Shown here: positions 57,716 to 59,890 of the stretch, in pieces
Layout: every line of letters starts with the position of its first letter
Numbering within the stretch: position 1 is the stretch's first letter
Assembly: GCA_016869285.1 (NCBI GenBank)
Contig: VGEN01000001.1
Coordinates: 7,201 to 71,200 of the forward strand
From: Alphaproteobacteria bacterium
GTDB lineage: Bacteria; Pseudomonadota; Alphaproteobacteria; SHVZ01
Direction: 5' to 3'
DNA length: 64,000 bases
Notes under the pieces: generated by a model
What the model saw: the letters and a program-made list of their open reading frames with translations, nothing else
What the model was told of the DNA's origin: nothing
The model's database searches: none
Made by a program: the position numbers and the translations under genes

Positions 57716-57738
57716 GACCTTCCAGTAAGTGGAAGGTC
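57716..57738. promoter_or_regulatory. CueR/HmrR (MerR-family) copper-responsive operator within copA promoter
   Basis: Perfect dyad GACCTTCCA-GTAAG-TGGAAGGTC overlapping a TTGACC -35 (57714-57719); arms ACCTTCC / GGAAGGT with 7-bp spacer match the E. coli PcopA CueR box. Confidence 0.65.
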
Positions 57739-57745
57739 CATATGA

Positions 57746-59890
57746 ATGGCGCTGACCGAACTGAGGCGCGCCATGCCTGAACACCAACGCCATCCGCACG
57801 CGCACGGCCATGCCCACGCCGATGCCCATGCCGGGCAGGAGGCGCCGACGCAGCCGGCAAAGGCGGGAGTCAAGTGGACCTGCCCGATGCATCCGGAAAT
57901 CATCCGCGACGCGCCGGGAAGCTGCCCGATCTGCGGTATGGCGATGGAGCCGTTGTCGCCATCGGCCGCGACCGATGACGTGAGCCCGGAGCTCGCCGAC
58001 ATGTCGCGGCGCTTCTGGGTCGGCGTCGCCCTTACCGTGCCGGTCGCTCTTCTGGTCATGCAGCCGCATCTGCTCGGACACATGCCCGTCGCGCCTCGCC
58101 TCTCGGTCTGGGCCGAGATGCTTCTGGCGACGCCGGTCGTTCTGTGGGGCGGCTACCCGTTCTTCGAGCGGGGATGGCGGTCGGTCGTCAACCGCCGGCT
58201 CAACATGTTCTCGCTGATCGCCCTCGGCACCGGCGTCGCCTATCTCTACAGCCTCGTCGCGGCGTTCTTTCCGTCGGTCTTCCCTGCCTCGTTCCGTTCG
58301 GCCGACGGCGAGGTCGCGCTCTATTTCGAAGCGGCGGCCGTCATCGTGACGCTGGTGCTCCTGGGCCAGGTGCTGGAGCTTAGGGCGCGATCACAGACCA
58401 GCAGCGCGATCCGCGCCCTGCTCGACCTCGCGCCGAAGGAAGCGCGGCTGGTCCGCGTCGATGGCGTCGAGGAGGACATCCCGCTGGACCGCGTCCAGCC
58501 CGGCGACGTCCTCCGCGTGCGGCCGGGCGAGAAGGTCCCGGTGGACGGGATCGTCACCGAAGGCCACAGCGCCGTCGACGAAGCGATGATCACTGGGGAG
58601 CCCGTGCCGTCGGAGAAGGAGCCAGGATCGAAGGTCACCGGCGCCACGGTCAACACCACCGGAACCTTCCAGATGAAGGCCGAGCGTGTCGGCAGCGAGA
58701 CGCTGCTCGCGCAGATCGTCGACATGGTCTCGGCTGCGCAGCGTTCGCGTGCGCCGATCCAGAGCCTGGTCGATACGATCTCCGCCTGGTTCGTGCCCGG
58801 TGTGGTCGCGGTCGCCATCGCGGCCTTCATCGCCTGGTCGGTCTGGGGGCCGCCGCCGGCGATGGGGCACGGCCTCGTCAATGCCGTCGCGGTGCTGATC
58901 ATCGCCTGTCCTTGTGCGCTCGGCCTCGCGACGCCGATGTCGATCATGGTCGGCACCGGCCGCGGTGCGATGGCTGGCGTGCTGGTCAAGAACGCCGAGG
59001 CGCTGCAGCTCATGGAAGGGATCGACACGCTTGTCGTCGACAAGACCGGCACGCTCACCGAGGGAAAGCCGAGGTTGGTGGGCGTCTATCCGATCGGCGG
59101 GATCGCTGAACCGGAGTTGCTGCGGATGACGGCGAGCCTGGAGCGTGGCAGCGAGCATCCTCTGGCAGCGGCGATCGTCAGCGGCGCCGAGGCGCGCGGC
59201 GTCCGGCCGCCGGCGACTAGCGACTTCACGTCGATCAGCGGTAAGGGCGTCACCGGCATGGTGGACGGGCACCACGTCGCGGTCGGCAACGCCGCGCTGC
59301 TGGCCGGGATCGGGATCGATCCAGGCGGCTTGTCGAAGACCGCCGACGAACTCCGCGCCGACGGACAAGGGGCGATGCTCGTCGCAGTAGATGGCCGCCC
59401 GGCAGGCGTCATCGCGGTCGCCGATCCGATCAAGGAGAGCGCCGCCGCCGCGATCCGGAGCCTGCAGGAGCAAGGAGTCCGCATCGTGATGATGACAGGG
59501 GACAGCCGGCGAACGGCCGAAGCGGTCGGCCGCAGGCTCGGCATCGAGGAGATCAAGGCCGAGGTCCTGCCCGAGCAGAAGGCAGGCGCCGTCAAGGAAC
59601 TGCAGTCGAGCGGACGGCGCGTCGCCATGGCCGGCGACGGCATCAACGATGCGCCCGCCCTGGCACAGGCGACGGTCGGCATCGCCATGGGAACCGGGGC
59701 CGACGTGGCGATGGAAAGCGCGTCCGTCACCCTGCTCAAGGGCGACCTCAAGGGCATAGTGCGCGTCCGCCGGCTGTCGCGGGTACCATGCGCAACATCC
59801 GCGAGAACCTGTTCTTCGCCTTCGTCTTCAACGCGCTCGCGGTGCCGGTGGCCGCCGGCGTGCTCTATCCCGCCTAGGGAATCCTGCTGA
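57746..59890 (+). CDS. copA: copper-translocating P1B-type ATPase (CopA/ActP-like); C-terminal region disrupted (1-bp deletion near 59784 and in-frame TAG at 59875-59877), native reading frame would end at 59976
   Basis: His-rich N-terminus ([13 protein letters not shown]), CPMHPEI...CPICGM metal-binding domain, CPC ([13 protein letters not shown]), [13 protein letters not shown]; likely true start at ATG 57773 given operator position. Confidence 0.8.

Follow-up and report, generated by a model that had tools for sequence, protein, structure and literature searches.

The Escherichia coli regulator CueR is a MerR-family sensor of Cu(I), Ag(I) and Au(I), and HmrR is its orthologue in Rhizobium and Sinorhizobium. 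Promoters served by MerR-family regulators typically have an over-long spacer of 19 bp and are activated by distortion of the DNA, and in the E. coli copA promoter PcopA the -10 hexamer is TAACCT. The window analyzed here, a 64-kb stretch of the alphaproteobacterial contig VGEN01000001.1, contains a promoter of this kind upstream of a P1B-type Cu-ATPase gene. The site is an ordinary instance of the well-known CueR/HmrR promoter class. It is very probably a sigma-70 promoter that depends on a CueR/HmrR-type MerR-family regulator, with the ATPase start at 57773, a regulator gene unlinked to the ATPase and a recently inactivated ATPase.

The CueR-binding fragment of the E. coli copA promoter is TTGACCTTCCCCTTGCTGGAAGGTTTA (PMC9004249). 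Its counterpart in the window is TTGACCTTCCAGTAAGTGGAAGGTCCA; the -35 hexamer and both 7-nt arms are identical, and the centre alone differs. In Permina et al. [quoted passage not shown] The window site is one base off each of these published signals. Unlinked cueR regulons, such as that of Vibrio vulnificus, and candidate CueR sites upstream of cytochrome genes have also been reported (PMC1526738).

The operator in the window is a perfect dyad whose arms are 100% complementary over 9 nt and lie 5 nt apart, as determined by a repeat finder. It sits inside the TTGACC-to-CATATG spacer, which is exactly 19 bp long. The sequence ACCTTCC-N7-GGAAGGT occurs in exact form once in the window, and the four next-best sites have three mismatches each. 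From base composition, about 2e-4 exact sites would be expected in a 64-kb window, so the operator is not a chance feature. A standard promoter and terminator scan called no promoter at 57714–57744, which is expected since the scan accepts spacers of 16–18 bp only and the spacer here is 19 bp. The first-pass annotation of this DNA had proposed a CueR-type operator, and the proposal is borne out by the perfect dyad, the PcopA arms, the fit to the consensus and conservation in three orthologous loci (L086, L089, and L096). It had also offered two -10 elements. CATATG at 19 bp was retained, with CATAT conserved in the orthologues, and TATGAA at 20 bp was discarded, as it needs a 21-bp spacer and is not conserved.

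Intact orthologues of the ATPase were identified by protein search, and their contigs were compared with the window. They are 734–789 amino acids in length and share 78–86% amino acid identity. The footprint TTGACCTTCC...GGAAG..CCATAT is kept upstream of the orthologous ATPase genes in L086, L089, and L096, and the remaining intergenic DNA cannot be aligned among the window and these three loci. TTGACC and CCATAT are invariant in all four promoters. The 19-bp geometry is kept in L086, L089, and L096, and their operator arms have 0–2 mismatches. The right arm is GGAAGGA in L086 and GGAAGCC in L096 with no compensating change in the left arm, which argues for a protein-binding site rather than an RNA hairpin.

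The signature TTGACCTTCC-N7-GGAAG-NN-CCATAT was used to scan metagenomes, and at least 120 loci were found. Among the loci listed, the first downstream open reading frame (ORF) encodes a Cu-ATPase in at least 46, a CopZ-like protein in at least 28 and a MerR-family protein in at least 4, and several further HMA proteins are found among the unclassified first ORFs. Strong MerR-family ORFs (E < 1e-25) in these loci all have the C-x7-C CueR loop (34 of 34), and all but one have the Ser77 equivalent (33 of 34). The association with copper genes and the CueR-type neighbors place the window promoter in a large, coherent and already-described class.

Other members of this class and more distant relatives of the ATPase were also surveyed. 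L089 has a second CueR-like box on the minus strand at 1727–1747 (TTGACCTTCCAGTCGGGAAAAGGT), with a 19-bp spacer followed by TAGCGT. This box has two mismatches and its own TTGACC, and it faces a divergent CopZ-like (HMA) gene at 1473–1676. The copper regulon of the lineage thus includes a chaperone gene that the window lacks. In L111, L115, L137, L138, L142, and L161, the Cu-ATPase genes have an ATG at exactly 7 nt past CCATAT that would give a natural-looking N-terminus, which suggests that some members of the promoter class have leaderless mRNAs. The 80 ATPase relatives listed from a genome collection have at most 66% identity and belong mostly to other phyla. Two of these 80 carry a CueR box, so the set says little about the promoter, but it provided positive controls for the regulator search. 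No close relative of the ATPase was found in a plasmid collection, where DNA similarity begins only at the HMBD domain. The best-named plasmid match, from Agrobacterium pusense, lacks both an upstream CueR box and a MerR-family neighbor, and the ATPase match on a Chelativorans plasmid also has no MerR-family neighbor.

No regulator gene was detected around the site. tblastn with CueR, MerR, ZntR, and SoxR gave a best E of 0.7 in the window. A MerR-family profile hidden Markov model, run with --max on stop-to-stop ORFs of at least 50 amino acids, gave a best E of 9 in the window, and an unfiltered MerR-family profile search of ORFs from the window, the orthologue loci and the right flank returned nothing better than E 1.5. 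As a positive control, the same queries detected eight regulators in other loci at E 1e-15 to 1e-55; with tblastn, the matches in these eight loci were at E 1e-15 to 1e-30. The loci of the close orthologues gave no MerR-family match with the tblastn queries, and Pfam annotation found no MerR-family domain in the flanks (~10 kb on the right and ~7 kb on the left). The first-pass annotation had found no MerR-family regulator in the window, and by tblastn, profile and Pfam searches this now extends to ~81 kb. It had also stated that in rhizobia the regulator is usually adjacent to the ATPase gene. This describes 18 of the 34 listed signature loci of at least 8 kb, which have a MerR-family gene, and not the remaining loci, about half. 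The missing adjacent regulator is unremarkable, because about half of the comparable loci have none and unlinked cueR genes are on record (PMC1526738). Neither a second CueR box nor an HMA chaperone gene is present in the window, and its right (L090) and left (L219) flanks also have no second box.

Two ATG codons, 57746 and 57773, lie in the same frame and 27 nt apart. ATG 57746 appears in the ORF list mechanically, as the first ATG after the in-frame TGA. The usual distance from a -10 hexamer to the transcription start is 6–8 nt. By this sigma-70 geometry ATG 57746, which is 2 nt past the -10 hexamer, would lie upstream of any plausible transcript start from the CATATG promoter. The position of ATG 57746 is occupied by ATC in L086 and by an in-frame TAG in L089, and L096 has no ATG there. 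Purine-rich stretches are found at the GAGG position in the orthologues. The N-termini of intact orthologues P0002–P0004, P0009, and P0011 align to the methionine at 57773; orthologue N-termini MTSHPPHQHAHDH... and MTDHQPHKAHDH... fit the window from 57773 and not MALTELRRA, an extension that none of the orthologues has. In 23 small CopZ-like genes among the signature loci listed, the start lies a median of 29 nt after CCATAT. In the window this distance is 29 nt for ATG 57773 and 2 nt for ATG 57746. The proposal of the first-pass annotation that translation starts at 57773 is therefore supported by the sole conserved ATG, the orthologue N-termini, the GAGG 6 nt upstream and the 29-nt spacing.

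Gene callers disagree on this start. The operator right arm GGAAGG (57731–57736) lies 9 nt upstream of ATG 57746 and mimics a ribosome-binding site, which likely drew gene callers to that codon. On DNA identical to the window, the call in L084 begins at the equivalent of 57773. Identical DNA was called as a 736-amino-acid product in L086 and a 696-amino-acid product in L094 and L095, and just one of these assemblies has a call for the cytochrome c gene. Predicted starts in this ATPase family are unreliable. Mutation was considered as a source of the 696- and 736-amino-acid products and rejected, since the DNA of L086 and L094 is identical and the difference is one of gene calling. A leaderless start at 57746 was also rejected, as it would require a -10 hexamer at AGGTCC.

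The cyclase protein encoded upstream of the ATPase was found in identical form on contigs of JGI 3300020193 (Ga0194131_10000189, 99 kb), JGI 3300020198, ENA ERZ27247963, and two Logan assemblies. These metagenome contigs have 0–4 differences from the window over the overlap. Sample 3300020193 is one of the metagenomes from a depth profile of Lake Tanganyika (bioRxiv 10.1101/834861). The sarcosine oxidase alpha protein (SoxA) encoded in the window has 53–55% identity to its best tblastn matches, which are Hyphomicrobiales replicons. The rhizobial setting in which the locus was first described is unsupported by the Lake Tanganyika contigs and by the SoxA identities, and it serves as an analogy only.

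The ATPase gene encodes the hallmarks of a copper pump. CPC in transmembrane helix 4 (TM4), the DKTGT phosphorylation site and GDGINDAP are all present in the window translation. The protein repaired across the lesions scores 580 bits against TIGR01511 (copper-translocating P-type ATPase; cut-off 397). Against the CopA equivalog PRK10671 it scores 657 bits, below the cut-off of 1316, with model positions 187–831 matched and the N-terminal part unmatched. Its Pfam domains are HMBD, E1-E2_ATPase, and Hydrolase; it has no HMA domain and has a His-rich N-terminus instead. The stretches that correspond to the metal-site motifs N-x6-YN-x4-P of TM5 and M-x2-SS of TM6 are encoded only past the frameshift, where FN replaces YN, as in all close orthologues, and MSLSS follows.

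The gene is disrupted, which was overlooked in the first-pass annotation and is new in the present analysis. The 714-amino-acid ORF finishes in a nonsense tail, and another frame goes on to ...TVTL and a stop, matching the C-termini of intact orthologues residue for residue. A DNA alignment with five orthologous sequences shows CGCGGGT-ACCATG in the window and CGCAGGCGACCATG in the orthologues at the deletion site. The 1-bp deletion is present in all three covering assemblies (L081, L082, and L083), so an assembly error is unlikely. The TAG codon is polymorphic: the ENA variant L082 has TGG in its place, as do all orthologues. The shortened protein ends before the final two membrane helices, which hold metal-site residues, and the ATPase has no intact ORF. 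Past the frameshift, the DNA remains very close to the sequence of intact orthologues, which indicates that the inactivation is recent. A relative, L093 (87–90% identity), has an intact 3′ end. Programmed frameshifting at 59784 was considered and rejected, as there is no slippery heptamer and the orthologues have one extra base. Because the ATPase frame is disrupted, the first-pass statement that copA is Cu-inducible could apply at most to transcription of a pseudogene and of the genes that follow it.

Taken together, the promoter would operate as follows. A dimeric Cu(I)-sensing regulator would bind the ACCTTCC-N7-GGAAGGT dyad inside the 19-bp spacer between TTGACC and CATATG. The Cu(I)-bound regulator would untwist and kink the spacer, and RNA polymerase would then open the promoter. 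Transcription would start at about 57750–57752, and the P1B-type Cu-ATPase would be translated from ATG 57773 behind GAGG. The regulator would be encoded away from the ATPase, outside the ~81 kb around the site. In the Lake Tanganyika population, the ATPase has lately been inactivated by the 1-bp deletion and the polymorphic nonsense codon, with the promoter left intact. Binding of a CueR-like protein, induction by copper and the position of the transcription start are predictions made from the promoter architecture.

Some observations weigh against this mechanism. CATATG is a weak -10 hexamer that matches TATAAT at 3 of 6 positions and lacks the final T. The stretch that separates the ATPase from the upstream cyclase gene (57607–57746) gave no match in the terminator scan. 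The ~81 kb searched (the window and ~17 kb of flank) contain no regulator gene, so the presence of cueR in the genome is presumed, and the regulator may have been lost along with the decaying ATPase. If so, the operator would be an orphan or relic, either with no cognate CueR-type regulator left or with the whole system going the way of the ATPase, and the promoter would be weak and unregulated. The frameshift and polymorphic stop fit such decay, as do the empty ~81 kb, the lack of any other CueR box in the window and flanks, and the lack of an HMA chaperone gene in the window. However, the operator is a perfect palindrome that has not decayed, the DNA past the frameshift dates the inactivation as recent, and the absence of an adjacent regulator is shared with about half of the comparable listed loci and with the reported unlinked cueR genes (PMC1526738); a relic is therefore unlikely. 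A CueR paralogue with another inducer, such as a GolS-like Au/Ag sensor, could also serve the site. Sites of CueR paralogues are indistinguishable at operator resolution, and Salmonella has a gold-responsive CueR paralogue with a CueR-type site (PMC1526738), which counts in favor of a paralogue. However, the downstream gene encodes a Cu-type ATPase and the regulators beside promoters with the same signature all look like standard CueR/HmrR proteins, which makes a paralogue highly improbable.

The remaining alternatives concern RNA and translation. The dyad could form an RNA hairpin, acting as a terminator or stabilizer of the cyclase gene or as a structure in the 5′ untranslated region, or it could be a chance palindrome. 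As RNA it would fold into a 9-bp stem, and relative to shuffled sequences the z-score of the 91-nt region is -3.4. However, the stem is not followed by a T-run, and the scan called no terminator. The sequence itself, beyond its pairing, fits the CueR consensus, the arm changes to GGAAGGA (L086) and GGAAGCC (L096) are uncompensated, and the dyad lies exactly between the -35 and -10 hexamers at 19 bp, with a chance of about 2e-4. A hairpin or chance palindrome is scarcely credible on this evidence. Since no terminator was detected, read-through transcripts that include ATG 57746 are possible and could yield an occasional longer, unconserved product. ATG 57746 might then be the start used on read-through from the upstream response-regulator and cyclase genes, with GGAAGG as its Shine-Dalgarno sequence and a product 9 residues longer. 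The absence of a called terminator at 57607–57746, the 9-nt distance from GGAAGG to the ATG and the choice of this codon by several gene callers speak for such use. It is nevertheless distinctly unlikely, as the codon is missing in L086 (ATC) and replaced by TAG in L089, the MALTELRRA extension occurs in no orthologue, and the gene callers contradict one another on identical DNA (the 57773 equivalent in L084; 736 versus 696 amino acids in L086 and L094). The preferred reading remains a CueR/HmrR-type promoter with translation from 57773. Coordinates of all features are reported in Table 1.

Table 1. Features of the promoter, the Cu-ATPase gene and the downstream gene, in window coordinates, and promoter sequences of the window and orthologous loci
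Feature	Position	Strand	Comment or sequence
-35 hexamer TTGACC	57714–57719	+	Read directly; overlaps operator left arm
Operator, perfect 9-5-9 dyad GACCTTCCA-GTAAG-TGGAAGGTC	57716–57738		CueR/HmrR-type
Dyad arms GACCTTCCA / TGGAAGGTC	57716–57724 / 57730–57738		5-nt centre
7-7-7 core ACCTTCC-AGTAAGT-GGAAGGT	57717–57737		Inside dyad
-10 hexamer CATATG	57739–57744	+	19 bp after -35
In-frame stop TGA	57743–57745	+	
Upstream in-frame ATG	57746–57748	+	Chosen in the ORF list and by some gene callers; most probably no start codon
Predicted transcription start	57750–57752	+	Placed by sigma-70 geometry
Shine-Dalgarno-like GAGG	57763–57766	+	6 nt upstream of ATG 57773
Proposed true Cu-ATPase start ATG	57773–57775	+	Only ATG conserved in L086, L089, and L096
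P1B-type Cu-ATPase gene, disrupted	57773–59976	+	His-rich N-terminus, HMBD, CPC
Lesion 1, 1-bp deletion	Between 59784 and 59785		
Lesion 2, TAG stop	59875–59877		
Ancestral ATPase stop TGA	59974–59976		
Cytochrome c gene, GTG start	59973–60416	+	Overlaps ancestral ATPase stop (GTGA)
Window promoter sequence			TTGACCTTCCAGTAAGTGGAAGGTCCATATG
L086 promoter sequence			TTGACCTTCCTGTAGGTGGAAGGACCATATG
L089 promoter sequence			TTGACCTTCCAGTTGATGGAAGGTCCATATC
L096 promoter sequence			TTGACCTTCCAGTGAGGGGAAGCCCCATATG

The cytochrome c gene is probably in the same transcription unit as the ATPase, and the ATPase-cytochrome c order is also found in L086, L089, L093, and L096. Metagenome gene callers cut the cytochrome c to 92 amino acids (equivalent to 60138–60416) and placed a spurious minus-strand ORF over the junction. 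In the window, the region 3′ of these two genes (61650–63982) encodes a 219-amino-acid protein without a family match beside a 557-amino-acid COX1-family protein. The latter has a distant likeness to subunit I of ba3-type (B-family) oxidases (E ~1e-18 to Thermus ba3) and no NCBIfam match. This oxidase pair is absent from L086, L089, L093, and L096; a beta-propeller gene is found there in L089 and L093, and L086 and L096 have neither. L086, L089, and L096 share a string of ATPase, cytochrome c, PG_binding_1, DUF2933, and ICMT/PEMT-family methyltransferase genes, with variable genes between them. The window keeps the ATPase and cytochrome c, with PG_binding_1 just past the right end, and the genes called in the ~10-kb right flank include neither DUF2933 nor ICMT.

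Genes for methylated-amine catabolism are abundant in the window (16631–19582, 24162–26189, 29876–31852, 32015–34441, and 43098–45509). They encode sarcosine oxidase alpha, a corrinoid reductive activase, an MttB-family methyltransferase and two dimethylglycine-dehydrogenase-like proteins. Several oligopeptide-type ABC transporters are also encoded. rRNA, tRNA, and Rfam scans of the window returned no match and offer neither an RNA-element explanation nor a taxonomic marker.

The locus is an example of the CueR/HmrR design from an uncultured freshwater lineage; its operator is intact, and the pump gene behind it was recently inactivated. It adds one more case of a well-understood regulatory device and opens no long-standing question. 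For annotation, the start of genes in this ATPase family belongs at the conserved ATG ~29 nt past the -10 hexamer, and the ATPase gene in the window should be flagged as disrupted. It is distinctly improbable that the promoter has outlived the ATPase and now mainly makes the downstream genes copper-responsive. If it has, the cytochrome c gene (59973–60416) and, transcript permitting, the cupredoxin-like and divergent ba3-like heme-copper oxidase genes (61650–63982) would be affected, and this uncultured Lake Tanganyika bacterium would have a copper-requiring respiratory module under copper-sufficiency control.

Four described systems are comparable. Like PmerT/MerR of Tn501 and Tn21, the locus has a dyad within a 19-bp spacer and would be activated by DNA distortion (PMC1526738); unlike it, the half-sites are not TCCGTAC-(4)-GTACGGA, and the metal and target genes differ as well. 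Like the unlinked cueR of V. vulnificus, the regulated ATPase has no regulator gene beside it, the window's own regulator being presumed. Like alphaproteobacterial actP-hmrR, the site is one base from the HmrR signal and has a 19-bp spacer. A CueR-type gene lies directly 3′ of the ATPase, in an actP-hmrR-like layout, in many metagenome loci with the identical signature, whereas in the window a cytochrome c gene and not hmrR is found in this position. The locus differs from the E. coli copA system in its regulator gene, which was not found in the window and flanks, in its dyad centre (AGTAAGT versus CCTTGCT in E. coli), in its -10 hexamer CATATG, and in its ATPase, which is disrupted and has a His-rich/HMBD N-terminus instead of HMA domains. 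It shares with E. coli PcopA/CueR the -35 hexamer TTGACC, the arms ACCTTCC and GGAAGGT, the 7-bp centre, the 19-bp spacer and a target gene for a Cu-exporting P1B ATPase.

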